Shown piece after piece: positions 6,645 through 29,078 of a stretch of DNA of 38,820 bases. The first letter of the stretch is position 1. Each line of letters opens with the position of its first letter. The notes under the pieces are model-generated. The model had not been told where the DNA came from. It saw only the letters and a list, made by a program, of their open reading frames with translations, and searched no databases. The translations under genes and the position numbers were made by a program. The stretch is from Promethearchaeota archaeon (GTDB lineage: Archaea; Asgardarchaeota; Lokiarchaeia; Sigyniarchaeales; SOKP01): NCBI GenBank assembly GCA_048941015.1, contig JBHLNZ010000030.1:1-38820 (forward strand). Direction: 5' to 3'.

Positions 6645-8963
6645 TTAATCTGCTGAAAAAATGTCAATCTCTTTTTTAGGGAATATTTTAAAAATTTTTG
6701 AGATCTCTTCCCCTTTTTCGATTTTTTCTATTGTTTCGATATAGATTGGATAATAGTCATATAAGATTCTTAATACGTCATTCCACATGTTCTGTTTTTC
6801 TGTATTATGTCCAATACCTTTCCTTAATTTTGAAATTCCCGCTTTAGTTCTTTTTTTCTTTAAATTTTTCAGAAATCTCTTATTAAATTCTTTTTTGATT
6901 CTATTATATTCTTCAGGTCTAAAACTTGCTATACTATAAAGAAGATCTTCGTCAGCATAAGGAAAGAAACTAACTTTTTTATCTTCTGGTTCTTCAGGAT
7001 TATCGAGCAATTCTAATTCAATTTCAGTAGCTTTTAGGGATTCTAGAATTGGATAAAGTTCTCCAGGTGTGATCTTAGTTTCCAATTGCACTTGAGAAGC
7101 AATCTCAGAAATTGAATAATTAAAATCTGGATATTTTTCTTCATTTTCTATTCGATAAATATACTCTTTCTTTAAAATTTGGATTATGGCTTCGCTTAAA
7201 GCATCTGGTATCTCTTTATTAATGAAAGCAATTTCAGTTTCCTTTTGTTTCTTTTCAAATACTTTCAAGTCTTTTTGTTTTTTAGAATAATCATTTGTTA
7301 GTGATGATAGAAAAATGTCCGTAGCTTTTTCTGATTTAGTGTCATTAAGTAATTTTAATGATTTACGTTTTTTACTTCTCATTGTTTTATACAATCTATC
7401 TGAAAGAAATCTCTTTGCCTTTTTCTGTGCAACATCCTTACTATCAAATTTTTGAGTTACTGATACAAAATCAATAAATTTCTGTCTAACACCATAATCA
7501 TTCTTCCTTTCAGTAATAGTAATATCCATATTACTATCAGCTAATTCTTTTATTAAAGAATAAATAGACCCTTTAGATAATTTTGTTGCTTTTATTAATT
7601 CTCGGTCTAAAATTTCAATCGGATAGGAATCCGCTCTTCTAATATACTCACTTTTTAATAACTTATAAATTATTGTGAGCTTTTCTTCTTCATTGTTCAC
7701 AGTTTCTTTTTGTAATCTTATAAACATTGAGGTTTCATGAGGTTTCAAGTAATAAACTAATAGTGTAGCTCCAAGAAAGATAATCATTATTATCGAAACA
7801 ATATACTTATCTGATAATAATATATTTCCAATAAGAGTTATTTCTTGATTTGAAATTTCAGTTTGGAGAGCGTATCTTGTCAATGTTTGAGCAAAAACAC
7901 ATCCTAAAATAAGTACAATCAATCCATCTCGTTTAAATATAAAAATCTGCCACCCTAATGAACGTCCTAACTTCAATATTATTCTATATAAAAAAAACAT
8001 GGATATGATAAACTCTACAATAAATATTACTGAAACTGTCGAGCTTGTAGCACCAACTGTAGCTTTTAATGCATCAATTGTTTCAGGTCTTAATATTAAA
8101 AATATTGAAATTTGAAAAATTTGAAAGAAAAATATAAATAATACTATTAATGAAAAAGTGTAATTGTCATACAATCCTGCTCTCTTTGTTTCAGCTTTTC
8201 TTCTCGTAAAAACAAACTCGAATAAAATAAATAATAAAGTCAAAACAAGACTAAAGTAAATTAAAGGCATTATCAATCTCATCTCAATAGTATAAACTTT
8301 TACTGCCTCTTCGGGAGCAAAAGGTCCAAAAAAGTCCAAAGAAAGAAATACAAGTAATGCTCTATATGTTAGGGAAATAATAACTAAAATAGCTAAGATA
8401 AAATAGGGACTAATCATTGCTAAAAAACGTCTTAATGGAGAATATTCTGCTATAAATTTTGCTTCAAGTTTAGTTGCAAATTTTCTAGAATACATAAAAA
8501 ATCGAGTACTGTATAAAACTAGCCAAATCGTCGATAACATTAATAAGTAACTCATAAAGTTTATTGCTGTTGTAAATATGAATGAAAATAATAAATAAAA
8601 TCCCCCTATTATGCAGATATAGATTAAAGCCTGTTTTAATGCAGACTTGTTTTCAAATATAAATAGTCTTATTTTATCACTGCTATAAAGAAGTGATAAT
8701 ACTAAAAAGAATGTTACAAGAGAATTACAAAAAGCAAAAGGATTAAATAGTGTAATAATCTGAAGAAATAAAAAATTCTGAAAATTTAGTGAGATTAAAA
8801 GCATAAAAGAATAAAATAAAAATATTGAATATATTCCTATAAATTTCTTATTAAATGCAAAAGATTTAGGAGGCTCTTTGCCTTCAATATAAATTTCTCT
8901 AAAAAAGATTTTTTTAAAAATTTTTTTTAATTTGCCCTTGATATTAGACTTTTTGAAGGTCAT
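6645..8963 (-). CDS. Hypothetical polytopic membrane protein (~10 TM) with a cytoplasmic tandem winged-helix-like region
   Basis: About 10 hydrophobic segments in aa ~40-405. Soluble C-terminal half has two related repeats (LLKSEYIRR..TKLSKGSIYSLIKEL / ILKKEYIYR..TKITPGELYPILESL). Confidence 0.75.
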   Translation of the reverse strand: MTFKKSNIKGKLKKIFKKIFFREIYIEGKEPPKSFAFNKKFIGIYSIFLFYSFMLLISLNFQNFLFLQIITLFNPFAFCNSLVTFFLVLSLLYSSDKIRLFIFENKSALKQALIYICIIGGFYLLFSFIFTTAINFMSYLLMLSTIWLVLYSTRFFMYSRKFATKLEAKFIAEYSPLRRFLAMISPYFILAILVIISLTYRALLVFLSLDFFGPFAPEEAVKVYTIEMRLIMPLIYFSLVLTLLFILFEFVFTRRKAETKRAGLYDNYTFSLIVLFIFFFQIFQISIFLILRPETIDALKATVGATSSTVSVIFIVEFIISMFFLYRIILKLGRSLGWQIFIFKRDGLIVLILGCVFAQTLTRYALQTEISNQEITLIGNILLSDKYIVSIIMIIFLGATLLVYYLKPHETSMFIRLQKETVNNEEEKLTIIYKLLKSEYIRRADSYPIEILDRELIKATKLSKGSIYSLIKELADSNMDITITERKNDYGVRQKFIDFVSVTQKFDSKDVAQKKAKRFLSDRLYKTMRSKKRKSLKLLNDTKSEKATDIFLSSLTNDYSKKQKDLKVFEKKQKETEIAFINKEIPDALSEAIIQILKKEYIYRIENEEKYPDFNYSISEIASQVQLETKITPGELYPILESLKATEIELELLDNPEEPEDKKVSFFPYADEDLLYSIASFRPEEYNRIKKEFNKRFLKNLKKKRTKAGISKLRKGIGHNTEKQNMWNDVLRILYDYYPIYIETIEKIEKGEEISKIFKIFPKKEIDIFSAD

Positions 8964-9113
8964 CCTAAAATTTTAAGTTATAATAATTATACCGATCCAA
9001 TTTAACTAATATTAAATGAATTTTATAATAAAAAGTGTAAGTATACTTTTAAAATAAAGTTTAATTATCTAATGAAATCTTTAAAAATTTTCAAGTATAA
9101 TATAATTTTGAGC

Positions 9114-9395
9114 ATGGATAAACAACTTGATCCTTCTGATAAAGAAAGTATTCTAAAACTTATTAAACAAGCAATAGAAATGCTATGTGAGAAAAATATA
9201 TCAGAAGTAGTTATACTTTCTTCTTATAAGATTAATTCAGTCTTAAAAGAAAATTATGGTGTTGATATAAGGGTTGATAAAATAGGGCGAATTTTAAGTA
9301 ATCTAGCTAAAAGAAATCAATTAAAAAGATTGAGTACAAATATTCCTAAATATAAACTTCATATCTCAAAAATTTCTTCTTTAGAATTCTATTAA
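9114..9395 (+). CDS. Small hypothetical protein, probable winged-helix fold
   Basis: ORF is 9072-9395; ATG at 9114 is the more likely start. Pattern SSYKINSVLKENYGVDIRVDKIGRILSNLAKRNQLKRL..KYKL resembles a wHTH. Confidence 0.65.
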   Translation: MDKQLDPSDKESILKLIKQAIEMLCEKNISEVVILSSYKINSVLKENYGVDIRVDKIGRILSNLAKRNQLKRLSTNIPKYKLHISKISSLEFY

Positions 9396-9412: not shown

Positions 9413-10819
9413 CTATTTTAATTGTCTGAATTCTGATATCAATTTTTGTAACCTTTCAATTAAGTTTTCCATTTCCTTATATTTTTCTTTTATTGGATTT
9501 GAACTTAAATTTAGATCATCAATCTCATTTTTCAATTTATTTTGAAATCTTGATCCTGACAGTTCAATTTCTTTAATAAGATCTTCTGAAAGATTGTTTG
9601 CTTTATTAAATGACTTTGAAACTAATTTAGTTGTTTCATTCAAGATTGGATCTATTTCAGAGTTAATTTCAGATGTTTTACTTACTTTTTTTTCTATCGA
9701 AATTTCATACTTCTCTAATTGATTTAAAACTTGATTTACATTATTTTCAAGACTTTCTTTTAAATTCTCAGATATTTGATTAAAAATTGAATTTATTTCC
9801 TTTTTTAAATTTTTATCGTTTTCAATTCTGATATCTATATATTCAGAAACATCTTTCATAAAGACTTCAGAAATTTCATTGAAACTTCTTTCAAAATATG
9901 CTTGAACATTATCCAATCCTTTTGAAATAACGTTTTTCATTTGATTTATCGTACTTCGAATAATTTCTGTTCCTTTCAAACTTCCTTGAGTAAGATCCCA
10001 CATCCATTTCCTTAATTGTTCTTTATAAACTCCAATGAATAAATCATTAAATTTTGAGGTTCCTTCTTCAAATCCGGAAAAAATTGAATTTAATTGAGAA
10101 TAAAATTCGTTATGCTCTTCTTCAACTAAATCTTGTCCTTCTAATGGAATTTCTTGTAAATCTTCTTTAATTGGTTTTATTGATTCATTATATTCTCTAA
10201 TAATTATTGGAGATTTCATTTGTGATACTTCTATAAGCTCCTGAATCCACTTAAAATAGTTAAGCGAACTTGGTATTTCTAATTCATAATCAACTTTTTC
10301 AATTTCACTTTCTGAACCTTTTGAAAAATCCTTAAAACGAAAAATTTCAAATCCAAAAGATTTATCCTTCTCGATTAACTTTGTATCAAACACAATACCA
10401 AATCCGAAAGGATTTTGTTCATTTTGTAAATAAATTTGATTTTTTCTATCAGCACTTGATAAATCAAGACCATAACCAAGATGACTATGGTACCAGCCTA
10501 TAACGTTAATACCTTTATCCAATAAATCTTGATTAATCTTATTTAAAATCTCATGCATCTCCTCTGAGAAACCTAATTCTACAATATCCCCATGAGTTAT
10601 AGGATAAATATCTTGCAGGATAACTGATTTATTTTCATTATGAAATGAGCCTATACATAAACCCAAAACTTCGACAGGTTCTTCTAGTTCTTCATTTCCA
10701 AATCTTAAAATATGGGAGATCATCTTTTTAAACGCAATTCCTTTAATGATTACTTTTCCATCTTTTATAATCTTATGTTCATTAGGATTTTCTTTTTCAG
10801 TTTTTTTCTCGGTCGCCAT
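9413..10819 (-). CDS. MPN+/JAMM metallo-isopeptidase (Rpn11/CSN5-like) with long C-terminal coiled coil
   Basis: EVLGLCIG ... GWYHSHLGYGLDLSSAD gives an intact E-HxH-x7-S-x2-D motif; ~230-aa helical tail. Confidence 0.88.
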   Translation of the reverse strand: MATEKKTEKENPNEHKIIKDGKVIIKGIAFKKMISHILRFGNEELEEPVEVLGLCIGSFHNENKSVILQDIYPITHGDIVELGFSEEMHEILNKINQDLLDKGINVIGWYHSHLGYGLDLSSADRKNQIYLQNEQNPFGFGIVFDTKLIEKDKSFGFEIFRFKDFSKGSESEIEKVDYELEIPSSLNYFKWIQELIEVSQMKSPIIIREYNESIKPIKEDLQEIPLEGQDLVEEEHNEFYSQLNSIFSGFEEGTSKFNDLFIGVYKEQLRKWMWDLTQGSLKGTEIIRSTINQMKNVISKGLDNVQAYFERSFNEISEVFMKDVSEYIDIRIENDKNLKKEINSIFNQISENLKESLENNVNQVLNQLEKYEISIEKKVSKTSEINSEIDPILNETTKLVSKSFNKANNLSEDLIKEIELSGSRFQNKLKNEIDDLNLSSNPIKEKYKEMENLIERLQKLISEFRQLK

Positions 10820-10825
10820 TTAATC

Positions 10826-12268
10826 TCAACTTCCTTTTTTCAATTCTTTAATCTTACTTAATAATTCTTTTTTTTCATTAGTTAATTTCTCTATTTTACT
10901 TAAAATAGGTTCTCTTGATCCCTCTAATATAAGTATGGCTGCTTTTAAATCAGATAAAATATTTTTTAATTCTTTATCCAAGTTACTAAAATTCTCTTCA
11001 ATACTTCTTAACTTCTTTTTATAGTTTTCAATTACCTTTTCATGTGTATTTTCTATACCACCTAAAATTCTCGTTTTTGAGGGATCAATTATGTTTGAGA
11101 GTTCATTAAACGTTTCTTTGTTTTGTTTGTAATTTTTAAGAATATCTTGGCTTTTTTCTTCAATTTTACTTAATTTGATATCACTTTTCTCAAAATTTGA
11201 TATTAATTGACCTAAAAGTGGAAAAAATTTCTTTTGGAAGAGTTCCTCAAACTGTTTAATTAAATCTTTATTGAAATTATCAACAACATTTTTAAATTTT
11301 TCATTTTCTTCATCAAAGATATCCAACTTATCATCGATGTAAAAATCTAAATCCTTCAAATTATTTTGTAAAGAATAATTATATGATTTTTGTAAACTTT
11401 TGATGCCATTACTTAAATTATCTTTTAATTCAGCTAAATCTTTTCTCATTTGAGAATTATTATAGTAAATTTTATTTGTTAGGTCTTGGCTCCACGTGTT
11501 TAAAATATTAACTAAAGGCTCCATTGATAACTTTAAAAATGTTAAAATACTATTTGAAAGGGCATCAAATAGGCTTGTAAAATCTAAATCTGGTTTTTTC
11601 GAAACCAATCTTTCTTGTTCAGGTATAAAAACATCCCCGAAAAGAGATGAGGTTTCATTCAACTCTAAAATAGGAGGATTTCCAGAATGTATATTGTTTA
11701 TTAAATTTATAATATTTGCATAATAATTAAGGTTATCCGGAGGCTCTACAATAGATTTTACTTCATGATAACGTGAATTCAAGCCCTTAGAAGGATCATC
11801 TAGTCTAAATGTTCTAAAACCAAGATCTCCTAGTTGGTCTAAATATTTATGATCAAATACAATACCTATACCGCTAGGATTTTTATCTTGCCAAAAAAGT
11901 TGATTAAATACATCAGTACCAGAAAAAAATATTCCTAAGTTAGGATGACTATGATACCAACCTACAGTAAACCAGTTTTTAGGGCCATACTCTTCAAATA
12001 TTTGATTATCGATCTCCCCGAACGCTCCCAGTTGTTCTTCGCTAAACTTTACTTCTATTGACCCTCCATGTGATATAGGAATCGCATCTTCAACAATTAC
12101 GTTTTTTATATCACCTTCGCCTTCAAGATGGCCTATTAACATTCCTATGACTTCTTTAAATTGTCTAGGATCTTGTGCTTTTGACCCAAAACGTAAAACA
12201 TGTGTAAGCATTTTGTAATATGCTATGGGTTTGATAGTGACTATATTATCATCTATAAATTTCCCCAT
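10826..12268 (-). CDS. MPN+/JAMM metallo-isopeptidase (Rpn11/CSN5-like) with long C-terminal coiled coil
   Basis: AYYKMLTHVLR..EVIGMLIG...GWYHSHPNLGIFFSGTD; ~250-aa helical tail. GAGTGA SD-like sequence upstream; 6-bp gap to the downstream paralog. Confidence 0.9.
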   Translation of the reverse strand: MGKFIDDNIVTIKPIAYYKMLTHVLRFGSKAQDPRQFKEVIGMLIGHLEGEGDIKNVIVEDAIPISHGGSIEVKFSEEQLGAFGEIDNQIFEEYGPKNWFTVGWYHSHPNLGIFFSGTDVFNQLFWQDKNPSGIGIVFDHKYLDQLGDLGFRTFRLDDPSKGLNSRYHEVKSIVEPPDNLNYYANIINLINNIHSGNPPILELNETSSLFGDVFIPEQERLVSKKPDLDFTSLFDALSNSILTFLKLSMEPLVNILNTWSQDLTNKIYYNNSQMRKDLAELKDNLSNGIKSLQKSYNYSLQNNLKDLDFYIDDKLDIFDEENEKFKNVVDNFNKDLIKQFEELFQKKFFPLLGQLISNFEKSDIKLSKIEEKSQDILKNYKQNKETFNELSNIIDPSKTRILGGIENTHEKVIENYKKKLRSIEENFSNLDKELKNILSDLKAAILILEGSREPILSKIEKLTNEKKELLSKIKELKKGS

Positions 12269-12423
12269 TGCTTAATCACTCTTTTTATTAAGTTTAGATA
12301 TAGTTATTTTTCGAAATATTTATAGTTTAACTCAAATATTTTTTAGAACTTATATTTAAGATTAAACACCTTATTATATCTATTCGATTATTAAAAGGCT
12401 TAAAAGAAGATAAATTAAACATT

Positions 12424-13074
12424 TTAATGTGGTAAAGGTTTTCCACAATATGGGCAATATTTAAAGTTTAAATCCTTACCACAGTGAGGACAAAACGCTG
12501 AACCACTGGAAGCAGATATATCTCCTTTCGGAATCGCTGGTAAGTTTCTTGATGGATGGATCGTTGAACTAATTGCGGGTACTCCTTCTTTTTCTCTCTC
12601 TTCTGCTTTTTTTGCTATTAATCTTTCTTTGAATGCTTGACGTTTTTCTTCTTCCAATTCTTGAATTGTTCTCATACCTTCTTCTTTAACCCAACCTGTT
12701 GATTTAGGTCTTTTCAATTCGCTTTCAGGCACTTTTTCTAATTCAATCGCTTTTGTTTCAGAGATAGGGGCCATTACTTTTTTCTGTTCCTTCTTCTCTA
12801 AAGCTTGTTTGACTAAGGCTTGAGTAGTTTTCATTATCTGATGGGGATTAATATTTGGAATTGCTACTGTTCGTATTACCCATCCTACGATAAGATTCTG
12901 ATTTGGAAAATCACCTTCAACATCTTCATCTTTATAGATATATGAATCAATTACATTATTACCCTTCAATAATCGAGATGCCCACTTATCATTAATTAGC
13001 CCTAATTGTATTCTATATGAAGTTCCAGGAATTCCTAATTGACTTGTTAAGGGCTCAAAACCTTTCTCTGCCAT
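12424..13074 (-). CDS. Hypothetical protein with C-terminal double zinc ribbon
   Basis: Globular N-terminal ~95 aa, charged linker/helix, then FCPHCGKDLNFKYCPYCGKPL. Confidence 0.8.
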   Translation of the reverse strand: MAEKGFEPLTSQLGIPGTSYRIQLGLINDKWASRLLKGNNVIDSYIYKDEDVEGDFPNQNLIVGWVIRTVAIPNINPHQIMKTTQALVKQALEKKEQKKVMAPISETKAIELEKVPESELKRPKSTGWVKEEGMRTIQELEEEKRQAFKERLIAKKAEEREKEGVPAISSTIHPSRNLPAIPKGDISASSGSAFCPHCGKDLNFKYCPYCGKPLPH

Positions 13075-13353
13075 TTTAATTCATTTAAATTAATTAATTT
13101 ATAATAACTTGGAATCAGTAAAAATTTGATTTTAACTATATTATAATGGTATATTTTGAATTTAAATAATTTTATATTCTTCCTAAAAATTAATTATTAA
13201 TTGGGATTAGTAATTCTATACTTTAATTCCCTTCTCTTTTAAATTAAGTTTTTGAAACATGCAAATTAATAAATATATTTAAAATTCAAAAATTAACAAT
13301 CTTCTACTCTATAAAATAAAACCAAGTAAAAAAGTAAACATAAATATCTGTAT

Positions 13354-13360
13354 TTTTATA
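13354..13360 (+). promoter_or_regulatory. Candidate TATA box for the 13394 gene
   Basis: TTTATAA about 35-40 nt upstream of the ATG at 13394; weak evidence in such an AT-rich background. Confidence 0.25.
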
Positions 13361-13393
13361 ACTTTTTCAAAAGAAAGGTCTAATATCATTATT

Positions 13394-14344
13394 ATGACGG
13401 TTTTTATTCCTAAAAAAGTATATTTAACAATTGTGGCCGCCTCAGTTAGATTTGCCAATCTAAAAATTCCTCAAGATGATTGGCTTGAAGTTAGTGGAAT
13501 ATTTATTGGAAAAAATGAAGGTGAACATGTCTTTATCTCAGAAGCATATCCTATTATGCATCAAGAATTAGATAAAAATGCAGTAATTGATCAATATAAA
13601 TGGTCAGATGAAGATTATGAAGCACTTTATATTATTGATGATGAAGCATTTGCCCATGGTGAATTTACAGTAGGTTGGTGGCATTCTCATCCTGGATTTA
13701 AAGTTATGATGTCTCATATTGATATCAAAACTACATTATCATATCAAACTAATAATCAATTAGCAATTTCCCTTGTATTTAATCCAATGCGGTTATTAAA
13801 ACAGATTGAATTACCAAATAAAAAAGGAGATCCCGTAAAACAGTTAAAAAATGATCCTGGCTTTAAGATTTTCAGATTAGATGACGTTAATAGAGGAATA
13901 GAAGCTTCTTATCATACTGTTGATTATAAAGTAAATGATTATGAGAGTATGGAACAACTAGTTGCTTCAACACAGAAATTTATTATAGATGTAACCAAGT
14001 TATTCCCTAAAGATAAAATTGATGAAGTGTATGCAAAATTTGTAAAGGAAAGGATTAACAAATTAAATTCATTATTATTAGGTACAGAAGAATATCTAAT
14101 GACTTTAGTACGAAAAGGAGAATCAAATAGAATCCCCGAAGTTTTAAGAAATCAAACTAATGATATTCGAAATTATGTTGCTAAAACATTCATTAAAATT
14201 GAAAACATAAAGGAATATATGAATTATTTGGAATATAAAGAGAGGGATATAATCATTCCAAAAATCGAAGGAATTCTTGCTGAATGGGATGAAAATGTTT
14301 CTAAATTAAATGACAAATTAACACAAATTTCAAAAAAATTCTAA
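13394..14344 (+). CDS. MPN+/JAMM metallo-isopeptidase with helical C-terminal domain
   Basis: EVSGIFIG ... GWWHSHPGFKVMMSHID (intact JAMM motif); GFKIFRLDD is shared with the two divergently transcribed paralogs. Confidence 0.88.
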   Translation: MTVFIPKKVYLTIVAASVRFANLKIPQDDWLEVSGIFIGKNEGEHVFISEAYPIMHQELDKNAVIDQYKWSDEDYEALYIIDDEAFAHGEFTVGWWHSHPGFKVMMSHIDIKTTLSYQTNNQLAISLVFNPMRLLKQIELPNKKGDPVKQLKNDPGFKIFRLDDVNRGIEASYHTVDYKVNDYESMEQLVASTQKFIIDVTKLFPKDKIDEVYAKFVKERINKLNSLLLGTEEYLMTLVRKGESNRIPEVLRNQTNDIRNYVAKTFIKIENIKEYMNYLEYKERDIIIPKIEGILAEWDENVSKLNDKLTQISKKF

Positions 14345-14499: not shown

Positions 14500-16704
14500 A
14501 TGAAAAAATTAAATTTTCCCTTTACCGCAATACTTGGACAAGATAAGATGAAAATGGGTCTAATTTTAAACGTTATAGATCCACAGATTGGAGGAGTGTT
14601 ATTAACTGGACATCAAGGAACTGGAAAATCTACAGCTGTACGATCATTGGTAGAAGTAATGCCTAATATTGAAATTGTAAAAGATTGTCAGTTCTCTTGC
14701 AATCCTAAATCTAATATTGATGATCTTTGTGAAGAATGCCAAATTAAAAAAGAAAAAGGTAAGCTTGAGACTTATACTCGAGAAATGAGGCTTGTGAATC
14801 TACCGTTAGGAGTAACGGAAGATATGGTTACTGGTTCATTATCGATTGACAAAGTACTTACAGAAGGAATAAGAAGTTTACATCCTGGTTTATTAGCAAA
14901 AGCTAATAGAGGTATTCTCTATATAGATGAGATTAATTTATTACAAGATCATATTGTTGATACATTATTAGATGCATCTGCTTCTGGTGTAAACATTATT
15001 GAAAGAGAAGGAATTTCTGTTATTCATCCATCCCGATTTATCTTAGTTGGGTCGATGAACCCAGAAGAAGGTGAATTGCGCCCTCAAATTGCCGATCGCT
15101 TAGGCTTAGAAGTAAAAATAAAAGCTACAAAAGATTCTAAATTAAGAGCTGAAATCTCAAGAAGAGTGATTGAATTTGATGATAATCCTAAGGAGTTTAT
15201 CAAGAAGTATGAAAAAGAACAAGAAGAGTTAAGAGAAAAAATTCTCAAGGCAAGAAAAATATTGAAAGATGTTACTATTCCTACTTCAGTTTATGAATTT
15301 GTTTCCATGATTGTAAGTGAACTTGAAATCTCTTCTCAAAGAGCAGATATTACATTTATCAGATGTGCAAGAGCCCATGCTGCTTACAATGGAAGGAATC
15401 AAGTTATAGAAGAAGATTTGAATGTGGCTTTAGATTTAGTATTTGAACATAGAATTCAATCTCTTCATTATGAAATGACCCCTAAAGAAGTAAAAGCAAA
15501 AATTGCGGAAGTTTATGGAAAAATTCAAAAGGCGTATGAAGATCCGAAAACGTATAAACCAAATAAAAACACAGAAGGTCCATTAAAGCATGATGATACC
15601 CCACAGAAAGAGTTTAAAAGACAATCAGTAGATCCTAAAAAAGTGTCAATGCCAGAAACTAAGGAACAGAAATTGCCTCCTCCAAAATACCCTGATAATA
15701 AAAAAAGAAGTCCGACACCCGCAGGTGGTTGGAAAGTAAAAAATATTCCATTTCAAGAAGACGAATTTAACTTTTTTGAAGATAATTTTGATACAATGCC
15801 TTTAATATATAAAATGGAAAAAAAAATGACCTCAATTTTAGATAACATCCGAAAAGATCGAAAGGTTTCTGATTATGGAGGACGAGGAATCGGAAGGCGC
15901 ATTAAAATAGCCTCTACTCAAAAAGGTAGATATGTTTCATATAGATCTCCAATAAATAAACCCAAAACTATAGCATTAGATGCTACAATAAGAAATTACC
16001 TAAAAAACACAATCTATAATCAGACTGATATAGAATTTCCTATTAAATTCAACAAATATGATTTGATGGATAAGATCTATGAATATAGAGCTCCTTTAGT
16101 TTTATTTTTTGTACTTGATAGTTCAGCTAGTATGTATTATGTAATAAAACAGATGACAGACGTTATTTTATCTTTACAAAAAGAAGGTTATAGAAAAAAA
16201 GATAAAATAAGTCTTATTATTTTTCGGGGTAAAGAAGCAATGGTTCTCCAAAATCCTACTGTATACTTTCAAAACGCAATAAAGAAGTTGAGAAAAGTGG
16301 AAGGGAGATCTTACACACCTATGGCTGCTGCTTTAAAAAAGTGCGTGAAATTAATTAACGCTGAAAAACTTAAAAACCGAAATATTATTCCTGTTATCTT
16401 CATATTTTCCGATTGTGGAGCAAATATTTCGGTTAAATACCCTGAATTAATTGCTCAGGTTCAATCCGATTATAGCTTAATAATTAATGAACTTGCTGAA
16501 ATTACTAAAAATCTATCTAGAACAGGCGTTCATATAGTAGTACTTGAACCAAAAAAGTCTTATGCTACAAGAGCTTTAGGAGTCAACACTTTTGCTGCGG
16601 ATCAAATAAAGGAGAATTTTAAGAGATATGGCAAAGCTACAATTTTCCAATTTGATAAATATAATCCCCAGAATTTAATTTTAGAGCTGAAGAAAATTCT
16701 ATAG
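14500..16704 (+). CDS. Mg/Co-chelatase ChlI/ChlD-like AAA+ ATPase fused to a VWA domain
   Basis: FPFTAILGQDKMK, Walker A GHQGTGKS, PGLLAKANRGILYIDEINLL (Walker B), GSMNPEEGELRPQ; Pro/Lys-rich linker; MIDAS VLDSSASM and YTPMA. Confidence 0.92.
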   Translation: MKKLNFPFTAILGQDKMKMGLILNVIDPQIGGVLLTGHQGTGKSTAVRSLVEVMPNIEIVKDCQFSCNPKSNIDDLCEECQIKKEKGKLETYTREMRLVNLPLGVTEDMVTGSLSIDKVLTEGIRSLHPGLLAKANRGILYIDEINLLQDHIVDTLLDASASGVNIIEREGISVIHPSRFILVGSMNPEEGELRPQIADRLGLEVKIKATKDSKLRAEISRRVIEFDDNPKEFIKKYEKEQEELREKILKARKILKDVTIPTSVYEFVSMIVSELEISSQRADITFIRCARAHAAYNGRNQVIEEDLNVALDLVFEHRIQSLHYEMTPKEVKAKIAEVYGKIQKAYEDPKTYKPNKNTEGPLKHDDTPQKEFKRQSVDPKKVSMPETKEQKLPPPKYPDNKKRSPTPAGGWKVKNIPFQEDEFNFFEDNFDTMPLIYKMEKKMTSILDNIRKDRKVSDYGGRGIGRRIKIASTQKGRYVSYRSPINKPKTIALDATIRNYLKNTIYNQTDIEFPIKFNKYDLMDKIYEYRAPLVLFFVLDSSASMYYVIKQMTDVILSLQKEGYRKKDKISLIIFRGKEAMVLQNPTVYFQNAIKKLRKVEGRSYTPMAAALKKCVKLINAEKLKNRNIIPVIFIFSDCGANISVKYPELIAQVQSDYSLIINELAEITKNLSRTGVHIVVLEPKKSYATRALGVNTFAADQIKENFKRYGKATIFQFDKYNPQNLILELKKIL

Positions 16705-16747: not shown

Positions 16748-17995
16748 ATGAATAAGAATAAGAAATCTGTATTGGTTATTGGCTTTAATACCCGTCCATT
16801 AGCTTATTCATTATCTATCGCTGGTTATGAAGTATATGTGGTAGATTTTTTTGGAGATCTTGATCTTTATCCTTATATTAATGATTCTATAATTATTATT
16901 GAAACACTTGGAGCTAGTTATCATACAATTAAAGAATCCTATAGCAAGTTTTTAGAAAAATTTACTCTGAAAATACTAAATAAATACCCTAAAATAAATT
17001 TTTTAATTATTGGAAGTGGTCTAGATGATGCTTTTCAAGAAAGAGAAACAATTCTGAAAGAAATAGAAAATAGAAAACTTGGAATAATATCTTTGAATAA
17101 TGAGATAACGGTAATTAAAAAAGCTAGGGATATTGAAGACGTTTATAAATTCTTAATTAAAGAAAACTATAAAGTTCCATTTACAATTTCTTTAGAAAAT
17201 TCTAAAAGAAAACGTGATGATCTTCAATTTCCATTTATTTTAAAGAAGAAAAGAAGTTCTGGTGGGATTAATATACATAAAGTTGATAATAAGGAGTATC
17301 TATCCTTTTTACTTAACAGATTAGAGAATATAGATTTTACTCCTTCAGATTGGTTAATTCAAGAGTATATTGAAGGAATACCTATAAGCTGTACTATAAT
17401 TTCTAATGGTGAAGACCCTCAAATATTATCAATAAATCGTCAAATTATTGGAGAAAAATATCTTAACGCTCCTAGTGAATTTATGTATTGTGGAAATATA
17501 GTTCCTGCAAATTTATTAAAAAGTGATAATGATTTGATTTCTTTAATTTCATTACAATTAGCAAAATTGTTAAAGTTAAAAGGAATAAATGGTTTTGATT
17601 TTGTTTTAAAAGATCACTATCCCTATTTGATGGAAATTAATCCAAGGATACCTGGTTCGATTCGAGCATCAGAATCAGCTTTAAATTTGAATTTATTGGA
17701 TTTGCACATTAGGAGTTTTGATGAAAATCAATGGAAATCAATAAGAGAGGAAATATTAAAAAGAAAAATAACTAATTTTACAACTAAACTTATATTGTAT
17801 TCTCGAAAAAATTTAAATTCAATTGATTTAAAGAAAATAAATGAATTAGAATATGTTCATGATAAAACTGATCCAAATAAAGGTGCTTCAAGAGGAGATC
17901 CCGTATGCACTATCCTCTACAAAGATAAAACTTTTTCAGATTCTTACTTTGGAGCTTTAAAAGTAGTGGATAAGATTTATAAGATCATTCAATGA
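16748..17995 (+). CDS. ATP-grasp domain protein (archaeal predicted carboligase, COG2232-like)
   Basis: GFNTRPLAYS..VDFFGDLDL, PFILKK..SSGG, LIQEYIEG, YCGN, GINGFDF, MEINPRIPGS. Confidence 0.85.
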   Translation: MNKNKKSVLVIGFNTRPLAYSLSIAGYEVYVVDFFGDLDLYPYINDSIIIIETLGASYHTIKESYSKFLEKFTLKILNKYPKINFLIIGSGLDDAFQERETILKEIENRKLGIISLNNEITVIKKARDIEDVYKFLIKENYKVPFTISLENSKRKRDDLQFPFILKKKRSSGGINIHKVDNKEYLSFLLNRLENIDFTPSDWLIQEYIEGIPISCTIISNGEDPQILSINRQIIGEKYLNAPSEFMYCGNIVPANLLKSDNDLISLISLQLAKLLKLKGINGFDFVLKDHYPYLMEINPRIPGSIRASESALNLNLLDLHIRSFDENQWKSIREEILKRKITNFTTKLILYSRKNLNSIDLKKINELEYVHDKTDPNKGASRGDPVCTILYKDKTFSDSYFGALKVVDKIYKIIQ

Positions 17996-17999
17996 TTCT

Positions 18000-18740
18000 T
18001 TATATTTTACTGATGATCGTTTTGATTTTTGCTAAATATACTCCTAACTTTTTATCATCAATCTCTGGTACTGCAATAGCAAGAATTCTACTATTATCAA
18101 GTTCGTGAACGATGAATGAGCCATTTTCCCCTCCAATTATAGAATATTCTAAGGTTCCTTCAAGTAAAATTCCAGACAAGTTATAAATAGCAGATGTCAT
18201 TGCTGATAGTATTGGTTCGGGCATAGTTGATTGAACTTTTATTGGCAAACCATCATTTGTAATGATAGCTATAATAAGTGCATTTGGTATTGCCCTTTTA
18301 ATTGCAACAAAAACTTCTTCTTTTATTAAATTCGAAGTTTCAACGAAAGCAGATAGTTGCATCGCAAATTTCTTTAATGAACTTATATAAAAATCTAAAC
18401 CTTCCAACTCTGCTAATTCTCTATTTAAATATGCAATCAAAGCAATATTTTCTGTTAAAATTGAAAGTATAATTCTTTCTTTTCCAGTTATTAAATTATA
18501 TGAAATTTGTTGATTTAATGAATCCTTTAAAATCTTTGATGAAATAAATACTAAGCTACTACTTGCTGCTGATATCTCTGTTCTTGTCATTTTCACTTCT
18601 TTCCTAAATTTGCTAGCAAGGTGAGTGCCTCCGTGAGTTGCGATTGAAATTCCTAAAATTGCAGCATTTCCTTGAATTTCTTTATCGATTAATTCAATTA
18701 AATCTGTTTGTAATTTTTCAATATCAGAATCTGAGCTCAT
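18000..18740 (-). CDS. Tandem Roadblock/LC7 (MglB/LAMTOR-like) domain protein
   Basis: Two ~120-aa repeats: ILGISIATHGGTHLAS..ISAASSSL and LIIAIITNDGLPIKV..LSAMTSAI..IIGGENG..KLGVYL. Confidence 0.82.
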   Translation of the reverse strand: MSSDSDIEKLQTDLIELIDKEIQGNAAILGISIATHGGTHLASKFRKEVKMTRTEISAASSSLVFISSKILKDSLNQQISYNLITGKERIILSILTENIALIAYLNRELAELEGLDFYISSLKKFAMQLSAFVETSNLIKEEVFVAIKRAIPNALIIAIITNDGLPIKVQSTMPEPILSAMTSAIYNLSGILLEGTLEYSIIGGENGSFIVHELDNSRILAIAVPEIDDKKLGVYLAKIKTIISKI

Positions 18741-23355: not shown

Positions 23356-26300
23356 GTGCGAAAAAATTTGAGTTCTGGTAAAAACGAATCCAAATTAAAT
23401 ATTAAAGAAATGTTTGGAGATGATCAAAAACTAACCTTTCTTGTTGGAGCTGGCGTTTCTTTTGAAGCACCCTCTCAATTGCCAAGCCCTCATGAGTTTA
23501 TGAAAACAATAATCAAATACATTTGCACGCCATCAGAGATTCAAAACCTTATTGACACTAAGTATTTAAGGTTTGAAAATTTAATTGAAATAGTACGTGA
23601 TATAATAGATCATGACCTTAACCTTTTAGATTTTTATGCTGAGTGCGATAAACCAAATATAGAGCATTTTTTTCTAGCTGAAATGATAAAAAAAGGAAAT
23701 TTCGTTGTAACTACTAATTTTGATTATTTAATTGAATATGCTTTAAGTCACTTAGATATTCAGAAAAAGAAGATTATTCCTGTAATTACTGAAAAAGATT
23801 ATGAAAAATTTAACGATCCAGAGAAACTTTTTAAAAATGGAAAAATGCCCATAGTAAAAATTCATGGATCACCCAAAAATATAATTACGGGAGAAGATAC
23901 AAGAGATTCCTTTATCAATACAATTAAATTATTGGGATTAAATTTAGATCAAAGCAACATCATTCAGCTGGAACCTTTTAAAGCTAAGTTATTAGAAAAT
24001 GTTTCAAATGAACGTTCTTTGATTATATTCGGATATTCGGGGCGAAATGATTTTGACGTATTATCGACGATAAAAGTAATGAAAAATCTCAAAAATATTG
24101 TTTGGATAAACCATTTAGATAATGGAAAAGATTCTGAAGAAATATACAGTGTAGATTTAAATTTACAGGATTCATTAAAAAGTTTAGATGAGATTGATAA
24201 AATGCTTTTAAGTATCAAACAATTTAATAATTCGGTTGATATCTATCGAATTAATACTAATACATCTAAATTATTAGAAAAATTTGTTGAAGATAAACAA
24301 AATATTAGTTCTGAAAAATTTAGTTTTAACTTACAAGAGTGGATCAAAAATGTTATTAAAGAACCAGATGAATTGTCCAAATTGTATATCTCTAGCAAAA
24401 TTTACTATGAATCTAAAAGATATAGTGATGCTTTAAGATGCTTAGAAAGGTTATTTCGAAAAGCAGATGATAGAGAGGAAGACTTATGGAAAGCTATTTC
24501 TCTTTTAGAGATAGGAGTTATTAATAGAGATTTAGGAAATTATGAGAAAGCTTTAGAATGGTTCCGTAAATCACTCCAAGTCCAATTTAAAACTAAAAAT
24601 GTAGAATATAAAGTTAAAGCTTTTAAAAATATAGGCTTAATTTACCATGCAATTGGAAATTATAAAGAATCCCATAAATATTTAACTCAGGCATTAAAAG
24701 ATAACGAAAAAGTAAAGGATCTATCTGCAAAAGTTGAGATATTGAACAATCTTGGATTATTGTACCAATCTAGAGAGAATTACATTGAAGCACTAAAAAA
24801 TTTTGAGGCTTCGAATAAATTAAGTGATAAACTTCAAAATCTAAAACAAAAAGCAATCAGTCTAAAATGCATTGGAAAAATTTATCATATAAAAGAAAAT
24901 TATTCCGAAGCGTTAAAATATTTTAATGAAGCCCTTCAAATTGATGAACTATTAGAAAATCTTGAAGAGAAGGCGGAAATCTTAAATATTTTAGGTTTTT
25001 TATATCATGAGACCGGTAATTCTCTTCTTGGCATTGAAAAATGTAATGAAGCCCTTCGAATTTTTGAACGATTACAACTTATTGAAGGAAAATTGGAATC
25101 TTTAAATAATTTGGGAATAATTTTTAGAGATCAATGGAATTATCGTAAGGCATTGGAACATTTTGAAGAAGCATATCAAATAGCTGAGAGAAAAGAACTA
25201 ACCGATCTTGAAGCTAAGTATGCAAAAGAAATAGGAATCATTTTTAGAAGTCAAGATAAATATAATGAAGCTTTAGAGTGGTTGGACATATCACTTAATA
25301 TTTACGATCAAATTGGCGATACATCGGGAAAAGTGGAAGTTCTTGAAAATATGGGACATATCTATAAGATTCAAAGAGATTATACAAAAGCTTTAAGACG
25401 TTTTGATAAAGTTTTAGATATTTTTGAACAAGTGAATGATCAGGATAATAAAGCTACAACCTTGAATACTATTGGATTAATCCATTTAGAGCAAAGAAAT
25501 TATAATGAAGCTTTAAGGAATTTTGAAAATACACTCGAAATTTTCGAAGAAACTGAAAATATTGAAGGAAGTATTGAAACCCTAAGTAACTTAGGTTATT
25601 ATTATCAAGAACAAGGATACTATCCAGAAGCCCTACGTCGATATCAAGATGCTCTTGATATGACCAAAAAGAGAGGATTAACAAGAAAAAAGGGGATATT
25701 ATATAATAATATTGGACAGATTTTACAAGATCAAGGTGAATATAAAGAAGCGTTAAATTATTTTGAAAATGCTCTTGAGATATACGAGGAAGAAGGAAAT
25801 TTAGACGGATCTATTGATAGTTTACACAATATAGGATTAAATTATCACTATACGGGTGAAGATACATTAGCTTTAGAAAAATTTAATGAGGCCATCACTA
25901 TTGCTGAAAGAATTGAAAATCTTCATAAAAAAGCACAGTGCTTGCGAGTTATGGGAAACATTTATAAGGGGCAATGGAACTTTCTTGAAGCACTGAGAAT
26001 GTACGAAGAAGCATTAGTTATTGCTAATCAACTTGGACATTTAGATGAAGTCCTTGAAAACCTTAATATTATCGGAAAAATTTATCAAGCACAGAAGCAT
26101 TATCCCGAGGCAATTAGACGCTTTGGAGAAGCTTTAGATGTTGTTGAATCACAAAAAAATTTGGAAACTAAAGCTGATATTTATAATAGTATTGGTAATA
26201 TTCATTTTGATGAGGAAAATTACAATGAAGCGTTAAAATGGTTTAATGAGGCCTTAACTATCGATGAACAGTTAGCAAATAATCGAGGTAAGGCTAAAAG

Positions 26301-27426
26301 ACTAATCCATATAGGCGACATTTTCCAAATTTTCAAGAAGCGAGACGAGGCTTTAAACAGATATAAAGAAGCATTAGAAATAGAGGATAATTTAGGTGAT
26401 TTGACTAAAAAGGCGCTCATCATAAGAAAGATTGGCAAAATTTTTCATGAGCAAAATATGCATCCTGAAGCTTTAAAATGGTATGAAGAATCTTATACAA
26501 TTTATGATCAAATCGAAAATCTTGAAGGCGTTATTGACTCTTTTGTAAATATTGGAGAGATATACCAAGATCTTGACGATTTTCAACAATCATTAAAATG
26601 GTATGATGAAGCTCTAAAAATTGCTAATCAATTAGATGATAAAGAAAGAAAAGCCCTAGTTCTCAATAAAGTAGGAGCAATTTATTATCAACAAGGTATT
26701 TATCGTGATGCATTAAAGAGACATAAATCTGCTCATGAAATATTTGATGAGCTTGGAGATCTTATTGGAAAGAGCTTTAGCCTTAATAGAATCGGTATGA
26801 TTTATCAAGATCAAGGTAATTATAATGAGGCTTTAAAGTGGTATGATAAGGCTCTAAAACTCCATAAAGTTTTAGGAGATACTGAAGAAAAAGCTCAAAG
26901 CATACACAATACTGCTTTAATTCATAGGGATTTAGGAAATTATCTTGAAGCACTGAAAAATTTTGAAGAAGTTATTAGAATAGATAAAGAATTTAACAAT
27001 CAAGAAAGAATGGCAATTAACTTGTCTAATATTGGATTAATTTATTTAGATGAAGGAAATTATTCTGTTGCATCTAAAAGATTTCAAGAAGCTGTAATAA
27101 TCGCTGAAAAAATTAATAATAAAGAAATTCTTTCTAAATTTTTGAATAATTTAGGTTTAGTTTTTCTCAATCAAGGAAAATATACAGAAGCATGGAAAAG
27201 TTGCAATAAAGCACTTGAAATATTTAGCGAGCTAGAAAATCATGAAGGTGTAGCAGACAGTCTATATAAGCTGGGTTTAATCTATTTAGAACAAAAAAGT
27301 TATGCTGAAGCATTAAAAAATCATGAATTATCGTTAGAAACTTTAAATCAACACAAATTAACCAAATTACCTCTTACGAAGATAGTAAAAAGTAATATCA
27401 AGCTGATAAAGAGTAAAATCAAATAG
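23356..27426 (+). CDS. SIR2-like (SIR2_2) domain fused to 25 TPR repeats
   Basis: FLVGAGVS..PS.LP, VTTNFDYLIE, KIHGS, IFGYSGRNDFD, followed by 40-aa TPRs to the C-terminus. Confidence 0.9.
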   Translation: MRKNLSSGKNESKLNIKEMFGDDQKLTFLVGAGVSFEAPSQLPSPHEFMKTIIKYICTPSEIQNLIDTKYLRFENLIEIVRDIIDHDLNLLDFYAECDKPNIEHFFLAEMIKKGNFVVTTNFDYLIEYALSHLDIQKKKIIPVITEKDYEKFNDPEKLFKNGKMPIVKIHGSPKNIITGEDTRDSFINTIKLLGLNLDQSNIIQLEPFKAKLLENVSNERSLIIFGYSGRNDFDVLSTIKVMKNLKNIVWINHLDNGKDSEEIYSVDLNLQDSLKSLDEIDKMLLSIKQFNNSVDIYRINTNTSKLLEKFVEDKQNISSEKFSFNLQEWIKNVIKEPDELSKLYISSKIYYESKRYSDALRCLERLFRKADDREEDLWKAISLLEIGVINRDLGNYEKALEWFRKSLQVQFKTKNVEYKVKAFKNIGLIYHAIGNYKESHKYLTQALKDNEKVKDLSAKVEILNNLGLLYQSRENYIEALKNFEASNKLSDKLQNLKQKAISLKCIGKIYHIKENYSEALKYFNEALQIDELLENLEEKAEILNILGFLYHETGNSLLGIEKCNEALRIFERLQLIEGKLESLNNLGIIFRDQWNYRKALEHFEEAYQIAERKELTDLEAKYAKEIGIIFRSQDKYNEALEWLDISLNIYDQIGDTSGKVEVLENMGHIYKIQRDYTKALRRFDKVLDIFEQVNDQDNKATTLNTIGLIHLEQRNYNEALRNFENTLEIFEETENIEGSIETLSNLGYYYQEQGYYPEALRRYQDALDMTKKRGLTRKKGILYNNIGQILQDQGEYKEALNYFENALEIYEEEGNLDGSIDSLHNIGLNYHYTGEDTLALEKFNEAITIAERIENLHKKAQCLRVMGNIYKGQWNFLEALRMYEEALVIANQLGHLDEVLENLNIIGKIYQAQKHYPEAIRRFGEALDVVESQKNLETKADIYNSIGNIHFDEENYNEALKWFNEALTIDEQLANNRGKAKRLIHIGDIFQIFKKRDEALNRYKEALEIEDNLGDLTKKALIIRKIGKIFHEQNMHPEALKWYEESYTIYDQIENLEGVIDSFVNIGEIYQDLDDFQQSLKWYDEALKIANQLDDKERKALVLNKVGAIYYQQGIYRDALKRHKSAHEIFDELGDLIGKSFSLNRIGMIYQDQGNYNEALKWYDKALKLHKVLGDTEEKAQSIHNTALIHRDLGNYLEALKNFEEVIRIDKEFNNQERMAINLSNIGLIYLDEGNYSVASKRFQEAVIIAEKINNKEILSKFLNNLGLVFLNQGKYTEAWKSCNKALEIFSELENHEGVADSLYKLGLIYLEQKSYAEALKNHELSLETLNQHKLTKLPLTKIVKSNIKLIKSKIK
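24370..27370 (+). repeat. 25 x 120-bp (40-aa) TPR-coding repeats
   Basis: The Y..AL-type motif recurs exactly every 120 nt from 24421 to 27301. Boundaries are approximate. Confidence 0.88.
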
Positions 27427-27456: not shown

Positions 27457-28296
27457 TTATATAATTGCGGTAATTTCTAATTCCTCTTGAGTATTCTGCT
27501 TTCTTTTTAGTATCTTTTCGTTTAATAAAGGTAATATTTTATCGTACAGTATATATAAATAAGGAGCACCTTGATTAAATAAAATAATGATCTCATATAG
27601 TAAGAATGTGATTCCTGTGGGTCTAATCCCAGTAATAAAAAGTGGAAATTCCATGAAAAACGATTCGATACAACCAATTATAAAAACAAAGTAAATAACT
27701 TTTAAATTTTTACTCTTAAATCGCTTTGTAGCATAAATCAATATTAAGATAGTATAGCCAATTATAACATTTATAATCCAAAGAACAAATTGAGAAGACA
27801 TATGGCGTACCGTCCTAATTTGAGTATCATTAAGGGGAATCCAAAATGAAAGATAGGGAATTAAAAACCATGATGCAAAGTAGAGTATTGTATAAGGTAT
27901 AATCTCTCTATAATTATTTTGCTTAAATTTCTCAAAAGCTATCCATAACCACCCAAATGCAAACATCCCATAGGAGATTGTCATCATAAAATCGGCACCG
28001 AACTTAATCCAGAAATATTCTCCTAAAGGTCGAGGAATATACACTCCTCCTATCCAATATTCTCGAATATATGTGCCCGGAGGATAACTAGAATTAACTG
28101 GTATATTGAACCAAGCAACTGCATCAATAATATAAACACAAATGCCTGTAATTATTCCAAATGAAATAGCAGACCACTTTTTCTTATAAATAAGAACTCC
28201 AAGCCAAATCGAAAGAAAAATCGCATCAAAATAGATGTAATCATATTCAAAAATTCTCCAAGCTTCTTTAAAATCCGCGATAAAATCATACAGCAA
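27457..28296 (-). CDS. Hypothetical integral membrane protein (~7-8 TM)
   Basis: Long ORF with multiple hydrophobic segments; no family motif recognised. Confidence 0.7.
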   Translation of the reverse strand: MLYDFIADFKEAWRIFEYDYIYFDAIFLSIWLGVLIYKKKWSAISFGIITGICVYIIDAVAWFNIPVNSSYPPGTYIREYWIGGVYIPRPLGEYFWIKFGADFMMTISYGMFAFGWLWIAFEKFKQNNYREIIPYTILYFASWFLIPYLSFWIPLNDTQIRTVRHMSSQFVLWIINVIIGYTILILIYATKRFKSKNLKVIYFVFIIGCIESFFMEFPLFITGIRPTGITFLLYEIIILFNQGAPYLYILYDKILPLLNEKILKRKQNTQEELEITAII

Positions 28297-28405
28297 AATT
28301 GATTCTCCATAGTAGCCTTCAAAGTAGAAGGAATAAAATTTATTAAATTAATTAGCTTTTTAAAGCATTTGAGATAATTACGAGTGTTATATGTAAGGAT
28401 TTTAA

Positions 28406-29053
28406 TTATTCGATATAACGCTGAATATATTCAGAAACCTTATCTGCAGGCTTAAAAACCCCAAAATGCCCTTCACATAAAATATCCGCCTCTAATTCTA
28501 ATAACATTTTAAGGGAATTTTGATAATCATCATAATTACTAATTCCTGGAATTATAGGTCCGTGTATATCTTGGCCAAATAAGATTTTTGTGTTTTCGAT
28601 TTTTAATAATATTGATAATGATCCTGGTGTATGACCTGGAGAATGAATGCATTGAAAATCAAAAGCCCCAAATTTCAATGTTAATCCCTTTCCTGTAATT
28701 TTTCGTTCTAATTTGATTGGTTTATAACTCACACCATACCAACCCGCAGCTGTTTCTCTGTCATGACCCGATTCTTCAATGGCATCAGCATCTAATTCAT
28801 GCGCATAGAATTTTATTTCCTTATTAAAATTTTTAAGGTCTGAACAAGCTCCAATATGATCAATATGAAAATGTGTTATGATGCAATGATTTATATCTTT
28901 AGGATTTAATCCAATCTTAGAAACTTTTTTTATTAATTCAAGGCTCATCCCACAATCAATTAGAACGAGTCCATCTTTGCTCAGCGTGTCAACTAGAAAA
29001 ACTGAACATCCTGAATCTCCTACATGATAAACATTTTTGAATACTTTTTTCAT
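28406..29053 (-). CDS. Metallo-beta-lactamase-fold hydrolase
   Basis: LIDCG, THFHIDHIG, PGHTPGS, FGQD, LCEGHFG. Confidence 0.92.
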   Translation of the reverse strand: MKKVFKNVYHVGDSGCSVFLVDTLSKDGLVLIDCGMSLELIKKVSKIGLNPKDINHCIITHFHIDHIGACSDLKNFNKEIKFYAHELDADAIEESGHDRETAAGWYGVSYKPIKLERKITGKGLTLKFGAFDFQCIHSPGHTPGSLSILLKIENTKILFGQDIHGPIIPGISNYDDYQNSLKMLLELEADILCEGHFGVFKPADKVSEYIQRYIE

Positions 29054-29078
29054 AATTTCTGCTAATCGAATTGCTTTT

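Follow-up and report, generated by a model that had tools for sequence, protein, structure and literature searches.

The question raised by this locus is whether three closely spaced MPN genes of a lokiarchaeial genome encode separate enzymes or the parts of one, and what they may tell us about the enzyme/pseudo-enzyme MPN pairs at the core of the proteasome lid, the COP9 signalosome, BRISC, and BRCA1-A. We know of no living intermediate in the origin of such pairs. The genes lie on contig C62 (JBHLNZ010000030.1; 38,820 nucleotides [nt], here called the window) of a 144-contig genome of 3.59 Mb with a G+C content of roughly 24-33% (Promethearchaeota archaeon, assembly GCA_048941015.1; genome G000). 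Two of them, MPN-B and MPN-A, stand in tandem downstream of a zinc-ribbon gene (ZnR), from which the third, MPN-C, diverges. Our preferred reading, which we hold at a little better than even odds (roughly 55%), is that MPN-B and MPN-A would together make up a stalked JAMM isopeptidase, each contributing one subunit. The window shows this pair with both sites still intact; in related genomes, it has repeatedly turned into an enzyme and a dead partner.

All three genes score above the cut-off of the JAB family (PF01398; 22.5 bits), with 43.2 bits for MPN-A, 49.0 for MPN-B, and 48.4 for MPN-C. Each retains the complete catalytic pentad (E50, H111, H113, S121, and D124 in MPN-A; E39, H106, H108, S116, and D119 in MPN-B; and E32, H97, H99, S107, and D110 in MPN-C), with the H-x-H-x7-S-x2-D motif starting at residues 111, 106, and 97, respectively, and the upstream Glu aligned in each. 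A first-pass annotation, made by a model from the letters and their open reading frames (ORFs), had reported three MPN genes with this motif within 5 kb, two in tandem with a 6-nt gap and the third divergent, and its coordinates and motifs proved exact; the gap runs from the stop codon of MPN-B (10826-10828) to the start codon of MPN-A (10817-10819). It had also likened the proteins to Rpn11, CSN5, and BRCC36 rather than to prokaryotic JAB proteins, and profile and structure database searches agree. The Prok-JAB profile is weaker in every case, with no match to MPN-A, 22.8 bits for MPN-B (below the 25-bit cut-off), and 26.2 bits for MPN-C. Sequence searches of the PDB (E value of ≤0.01) with the three proteins and with a 46-sequence MPN-B profile matched the MPN domains only to eukaryote-type isopeptidases (CSN5, Rpn11, BRCC36, and AMSH) and to a Caldiarchaeum Rpn11-like protein, with E values of 1e-7 to 2e-12. 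CSN5 and Rpn11 are the best matches of MPN-A and MPN-C (CSN5 first for MPN-C, at 5.5e-10) and are also among the best of MPN-B, whose top match is the Caldiarchaeum protein CsRpn11 (6fjv; 9e-8 in the single-sequence search and 2e-12 in the profile search). When the MPN head was used by itself in a word-index search, all proteins recovered were from Asgard archaea.

The structural model of MPN-B, the only one of the three to be folded, leads to the same family. The AlphaFold2 (AF2) model (mean predicted local distance difference test score [pLDDT], 75.6) consists of an MPN head (residues 1-193), a linker (194-240) that is modeled with low confidence yet is conserved in sequence, and a single helix (242-478). 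Foldseek searches with this model ranked BRCC36, CSN5, and Rpn11 first (E values of 5e-9 to 2e-7 for these chains), BRCC36 being the top match, with 290-300 aligned columns that reach into the helix. The head superimposes on Rpn11 with a template modeling score of 0.68-0.69, normalized to the target, as befits an MPN fold. Judged by the profiles and, for MPN-B, by the fold, all three belong to the eukaryote-type MPN+ proteins, meaning those with an intact site, and each is predicted to be a zinc-dependent isopeptidase.

MPN-A and MPN-B each continue from the head into a helical tail of about 270-285 amino acids (aa), and the two can be aligned with each other over up to ~490 residues, tails included. 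Hydrophobic residues of the tail recur, across 46 MPN-B homologs, with a period of 3.6-3.67 in the first half (residues 242-350) and of 3.5-3.6 in the second, and only two prolines are conserved; this pattern fits a long amphipathic or coiled-coil stalk. The tail of the MPN-B profile has weak matches to apolipoproteins (A-IV and A-I, with E values of 6e-8 to 5e-7) and to coiled coils; the Pfam Apolipoprotein family (PF01442) gives 20.9 bits for MPN-A and 37.6 bits for a 472-aa relative, far below its cut-off of 90. A search of the ESM Atlas with the tail found nothing, and the lengths of the MPN-A and MPN-B proteins showed no obvious correlation by eye across the loci that we examined.

The central result concerns the active sites of the twins, which we compared in aligned orthologs from 40-odd genomes. 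The pentad is intact in all 42 MPN-B orthologs and invariant across the 46 MPN-B homologs, and it is intact, with Ser or Thr, in every complete ortholog of MPN-C. In MPN-A, it is intact in only 13 of 39 distinct orthologs (15 if Ser-to-Thr replacement is counted as intact), and the 24 broken copies carry ten kinds of signature: EHRSD, ESHSE, QHHSD, EVHTD, EIHTD/EIHND/EIHRD/EIHVD, ELRTT, ELHSG, KLHTD, ESHSA, and SSRNN. Thus, 24 of the 39 distinct orthologous pairs in related genomes combine one active with one dead paralog, a state not seen in the window. When mapped onto the tree of MPN-B, the intact or broken state of MPN-A requires at least 5 changes and the exact signature 14. The window genome and its nearest relative (G013) form a subclade with intact MPN-A that is flanked by QHHSD and EHRSD lineages, and the intact MPN-A of the window is, on this tree, a retained ancestral state. 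Broken MPN-A is still under purifying selection: the ratio of nonsynonymous to synonymous substitution rates (dN/dS) in the broken lineages is 0.13-0.33 overall and 0.11-0.33 for the MPN domain alone, not far from the 0.10-0.21 of MPN-B. As a sister of MPN-B in which catalysis appears dispensable and presence indispensable, MPN-A thus bears the signature of a non-catalytic partner. With MPN-B always intact and MPN-A often broken yet selected, we interpret the window as the still-intact state of a pair that turned MPN+/MPN- repeatedly in its relatives. Two oddities among the orthologs may be recorded here: MPN-B of genome G015 has three additional residues between the HxH and S..D elements (locus L039, 6372-7826), and MPN-C of G056 is split into ORFs of 107 and 212 aa (L040, 7014-7998) by a frameshift or an assembly error.

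MPN-B has more than 300 homologs with 46-87% identity over the full length, and all named ones come from Loki-type Asgard metagenome-assembled genomes. Each of the 61 genomes sampled from the class yielded a match to MPN-B, and each of the 49 from the family that we label f1 yielded a full-length ortholog; the B-type tail was found in 24 of 25 f1 genomes and was absent from all 125 genomes sampled elsewhere in the phylum. Our MPN-domain tree, which holds no eukaryotic sequences (for eukaryotic MPN proteins the comparison rests on the rankings of PDB sequences, profiles, and folds given above), places clade A next to clade B, and in it MPN-C and the copies of the type found on contig C38 form separate, fully supported clades, that of MPN-C having 100% support and including family f2. 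On the evidence of the alignments and this tree, MPN-A and MPN-B are sister paralogs; the tandem duplication that gave rise to them was observed in families f1 and f2 of this Lokiarchaeia order and nowhere else. Given that the duplication is found only there, the pair looks like a parallel to the Rpn11/Rpn8-type pairs, not their precursor, and its distribution argues for a lineage-specific, independent origin. The first-pass annotation had suggested a state preceding the split into active enzyme and pseudo-enzyme; this stands insofar as the intact MPN-A is an ancestral state but not as a precursor of the eukaryotic pairs, and in sister lineages the split has already happened repeatedly.

The first-pass annotation had staked its proposal on co-location in related genomes, and co-location is indeed kept. 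In 20 fetched regions, we found the arrangement to recur throughout family f1 as a block with a Roadblock-like gene, an ATP-grasp gene, a chelatase-like AAA-VWA gene, and MPN-C on one strand and ZnR, MPN-B, and MPN-A on the other, followed by a small winged-helix-like gene, a 772-aa membrane protein, and a major facilitator superfamily (MFS) transporter. Insertions interrupt this block at varied points. The whole genome has six MPN+ genes: the three of the window, a stalked 412-aa copy on contig C38, and short copies inside ubiquitin/E1/E2 clusters on C50 (166 aa) and C29 (277 aa). By our own arithmetic, the probability that three of the six fall within 5 kb is ~4e-5; this and the recurrence of the arrangement through the whole of family f1 indicate that the clustering is not due to chance. 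Since the block also includes unrelated genes, synteny says little by itself. MPN-B and MPN-A abut or overlap, with junctions of -19 to +15 nt, at all but one of the 17 loci examined. In the f2 genome G039, the B-A pair is on one contig and the divergent MPN-C/ZnR pair on another, which suggests that MPN-C and ZnR form an older linkage and that B-A is a separate unit.

That B and A form an enzyme/partner pair is well supported, if indirectly; for the predicted physical heterodimer, the evidence is the indirect one of genes that abut, paralogous tails that are collinear, and decay on one side only. We propose that the MPN heads of the two proteins would pair as in Rpn11-Rpn8, CSN5-CSN6, and BRCC36-Abraxas, and that their collinear tails would run side by side as a parallel stalk tens of nanometers in length. 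MPN-B would be the cleaving subunit, and MPN-A would position or activate it; in the window genome, MPN-A might still cleave as well. The substrate would most likely be an isopeptide conjugate of ubiquitin or a ubiquitin-like protein made by the ubiquitin/E1/E2 clusters on other contigs, and MPN-C would be a separate, older, always-active stalked JAMM enzyme that shares a divergent promoter region with the adaptor-like ZnR. The first-pass idea of a heteromeric assembly with every subunit active fares accordingly in two ways: the tandem pair behaves like an enzyme and its partner, and none of the three sites is broken in this genome, but MPN-C and ZnR are tied to the pair by neighborhood only.

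The first-pass annotation had left the substrate wholly open, which now seems too cautious, as clusters of ubiquitin-system genes around relatives in other Lokiarchaeia link the family to ubiquitin. The nearest stalked MPN gene (472-487 aa), alignable with MPN-B into the tail, adjoins a 172-aa UQ_con conjugating enzyme (E2; E value of 5e-26) in three genera of two other Lokiarchaeia families (G010, G008, and G012), and in two of the three clusters ThiF-type genes resembling activating enzymes (E1) and VWA-RING genes lie alongside. The cluster of G010 (L053, G010:C6, 5459-12468; see also L054 and L055) combines the stalked MPN+ gene with a UQ_con/RWD gene, a 409-aa ThiF E1, the 172-aa E2, a second ThiF-like gene, and a VWA+RING protein, a candidate ubiquitin ligase (E3). 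Membership in such ubiquitin/E1/E2(/RING) clusters is thus a property of the stalked relatives in these three genomes and not of the window genes. The window genome itself encodes ubiquitin-like proteins, E1s, and four or five E2s on contigs C7, C29, C50, C90, and C126 (E1-like genes being on C29, C50, and others); all matches of whole-genome UQ_con and ubiquitin searches fall on these five contigs and none in the window. Our Pfam/NCBIfam scan of window ORFs covered 52-23174 and 27457-29873, leaving aside a 1356-aa ORF (23356-27426) and everything past 29873, and in the ORFs scanned we found no ubiquitin, E1, E2, E3, PCI, or proteasome domain, as the first-pass annotation had stated. We accordingly rejected a canonical proteasome-lid operon, there being no PCI or proteasome genes nearby in those ORFs. 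Because the relatives sit in E2/E1/RING clusters and the genome encodes ubiquitin, E1, and E2, ubiquitin-like conjugates are the most likely substrate, by association only. As a separate observation, the cluster on C29 (~19.3-24.6 kb) comprises two ubiquitin-like genes with acidic N-terminal extensions (129 and 111 aa), a 410-aa E1, a 175-aa E2, and the 277-aa MPN+ gene, which the PF01398 genome search missed and tblastn recovered.

Several findings weigh against a paired, ubiquitin-directed enzyme. MPN-A in the window is no pseudo-enzyme, so that the asymmetry of the pair is read from its relatives; no ubiquitin, E1, or E2 gene was found among the scanned ORFs of the window, and the genome's two ubiquitin clusters already have short MPN+ genes of their own; the MPN-domain tree gives no supported sister placement of A/B with the ubiquitin-cluster clade; the first half of the MPN-B tail, with its periodicity and weak apolipoprotein-like matches, equally fits surface-binding amphipathic helices; and in G032 a 6-kb insertion separates B from A. 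This last locus, the three intact sites of the window genome, and the unrelated genes (chelatase-like, ATP-grasp, and MFS) in the ten-gene syntenic block would all be expected if A, B, and C were independent paralogous deubiquitinases that act alone or as homodimers, brought together by tandem duplication and kept together by slowly decaying synteny, with dead MPN-A as a stand-alone ubiquitin-binding or scaffold pseudo-enzyme. Such independence sits poorly with a B-A junction that persists despite insertions elsewhere in the block and with decay that strikes the downstream twin only, never B, and leaves that twin under purifying selection. Well-characterized MPN- proteins, to our knowledge, act as partners of MPN+ proteins, and we consider independent enzymes an unlikely explanation. 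The case of BRCC36 is covered in PMC4579573.

The tails admit a further interpretation that is compatible with an A-B pair, namely, that they are apolipoprotein-like amphipathic helices lying on a membrane or lipid surface, with the heads held beside the polytopic 772-aa protein. The matches of the MPN-B profile to apolipoproteins A-IV and A-I, the Pfam matches on MPN-A and the 472-aa relative, the 3.6-3.67 periodicity, and the conserved neighborhood of the membrane protein and the small winged-helix-like gene are in line with it. Those Pfam matches, at ~21-38 bits, fall far short of the cut-off and may be due to composition alone, the tail is heptad-like in its second half, and the two conserved prolines are unlike the proline-punctuated repeats of apolipoproteins; a membrane-surface isopeptidase thus appears distinctly improbable to us. 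It is also conceivable that the enzyme acts on something other than ubiquitin, such as a modifier or precursor with a C-terminal glycine (SAMP/MoaD/ThiS type) or another peptide, like several prokaryotic JAMM proteins. The ubiquitin-free scanned part of the window, the MPN+ genes that the genome's ubiquitin clusters already possess, and the many ThiF-like genes of the genome would suit such a substrate. Nevertheless, the sequence and fold matches are to eukaryote-type ubiquitin/Nedd8 isopeptidases and to the ubiquitin-processing Rpn11 of Caldiarchaeum, not to prokaryotic JAMM proteins, and the nearest stalked relatives adjoin E2, E1-like, and RING genes, which leaves a non-ubiquitin substrate very unlikely. 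On balance, we retain the stalked A-B isopeptidase as the best account of the locus.

Features of the locus and its immediate surroundings (window coordinates)
Feature	Coordinates	Strand	Description
Membrane protein	6645..8963	-	772 aa; ~9 hydrophobic segments in residues 40-410
Small protein	9072..9395	+	107 aa; winged-helix-like by eye; convergent with MPN-A
MPN-A	9413..10819	-	468 aa; JAMM/MPN head and helical tail; sister paralog of MPN-B
MPN-B	10826..12268	-	480 aa; always-intact JAMM/MPN+ head and long helix
Zinc-ribbon protein (ZnR)	12424..13074	-	216 aa; upstream of MPN-B, divergent from MPN-C
Divergent intergenic region	13075..13393		319 nt; ZnR to MPN-C; presumed site of both promoters
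MPN-C	13394..14344	+	316 aa; separate older MPN+ paralog, divergent from ZnR

MPN-C has a shorter helical tail of ~130 aa. Its divergent arrangement with ZnR is common to families f1 and f2; the position of the ZnR gene is kept throughout f1, and the gene adjoins MPN-C in the f2 genome. ZnR begins with a conserved N-terminal domain (residues 1-95) and ends in a C-terminal ribbon (CPxCG...CPxCG); the linker between them is charged and contains linear motifs that are also conserved. Here, the first-pass annotation needs correction: it had called a double zinc ribbon, which we rejected, as there are four Cys only and hence a single ribbon; the Pfam matches to DZR and zinc-ribbon families are all slightly under their cut-offs. 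The AF2 model of ZnR (pLDDT, 52) is unusable. The N-terminal domain (12790-13074, minus strand) corresponds to no Pfam family, and its own family is small, with 146 clusters in a set of 1.84 billion representatives. Three of these proteins (P0154, P0174, and P0232) carry the domain C terminal to a Ras/Rab-like GTPase domain, an arrangement suggestive of an adaptor module in trafficking or signaling, and ZnR as a whole looks like an adaptor. Gene neighborhood being the sole tie of MPN-C or ZnR to an A/B complex, their membership in a shared complex is unsupported. In family f5, a ZnR homolog is divergent from a membrane protein with zf-AN1 and peptidase M50 (site-2-protease-like) domains (L090, 208-1332, minus strand; L091, 178-1263, minus strand).

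On the other side of the pair, the 107-aa gene lies beside MPN-A in all 15 f1 loci that reach that far, and its product has no Pfam or NCBIfam match. The 772-aa membrane protein, syntenic in family f1, has a cytoplasmic C-terminal half with winged-helix-like modules (its segments are from a hydropathy scan) and only a weak PadR-like match. Whether either protein belongs to the MPN system is uncertain. Downstream of MPN-C lies a gene (14500-16704, plus strand) for a ChlI/ChlD-type AAA+-VWA fusion protein that shares 94% identity with the G013 copy and matches the putative cobaltochelatase family TIGR02442 with 585 bits, below the cut-off; it is followed by a gene for an ATP-grasp_3 ligase (16748-17995, plus strand). 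These two conserved neighbors of MPN-C are probably metabolic. We considered the AAA+-VWA protein as an Rpn10- or MoxR-like partner and rejected it, as it is of the ChlI/ChlD type and several genomes have insertions between it and MPN-C. A 246-aa protein with a weak Roadblock/LC7 match (24.4 bits; 18000-18740, minus strand) also lies within the conserved block.

Literature searches returned no description of this stalked MPN pair. Within a single archaeal family, it provides a natural series that extends from both twins intact, as in the window genome, to many independent dead-twin states at constant gene order, and by virtue of this series the origin of enzyme/pseudo-enzyme pairs becomes approachable with natural variants. 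The Asgard ubiquitin toolkit would thereby gain specialized, stalked deubiquitinase-like enzymes; none of this bears on the direct ancestry of the eukaryotic complexes. As a bolder conjecture, which we think has only a small chance of being right, Lokiarchaeia of this order may have independently built a heterodimeric stalked deubiquitinase in which MPN-B needs its twin even as that twin turns into a pseudo-enzyme, the window representing the double-active ancestral state. The stalk, the ZnR adaptor with its N-terminal domain elsewhere fused to Ras-like GTPases, and the membrane protein would then target this enzyme to a site of membrane trafficking, as an archaeal functional counterpart of endosomal and BRISC-type deubiquitinase complexes.

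The closest archaeal precedent is CsRpn11 of Caldiarchaeum subterraneum (6fjv; PMC6043591), which, like MPN-B, is an archaeal eukaryote-type MPN+ enzyme and which belongs to a ubiquitin system. It is short, stalkless, and encoded inside a ubiquitin/E1/E2/RING operon, whereas the three proteins of the window are long-tailed and stand outside any ubiquitin cluster; the short enzymes on C50 and C29 are the counterparts of CsRpn11 in this genome. Among eukaryotic systems, the PCI-MPN complexes (proteasome lid, COP9 signalosome, and eIF3) differ by their PCI or proteasome partners, of which none was found beside the window MPN genes in the scanned ORFs. A close analogy is with BRCC36-Abraxas and BRCC36-KIAA0157 (ABRO1), the cores of BRCA1-A and BRISC (PMC4579573), which likewise join an MPN+ enzyme to an MPN paralog; this partner is dead there and becomes dead here in relatives. 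In both systems, each chain extends into C-terminal helices. The BRCC36 complexes have a short coiled coil in place of archaeal tails of ~270-285 aa, and no BRCC45/MERIT40-like or SHMT2-like partners were seen for the putative A/B heterodimer. Moreover, both heads are intact in the window genome, and the pairs do not appear to be orthologous, the archaeal duplication having been found in one Lokiarchaeia order only. Rpn11-Rpn8 of the 26S proteasome lid and CSN5-CSN6 of the COP9 signalosome have short helical-bundle segments rather than long tails, and the archaeal pair looks lineage specific; what they share with A/B is the eukaryote-type MPN domain, the E...HxH...S..D site, and the logic of an enzyme accompanied by a degenerate twin.

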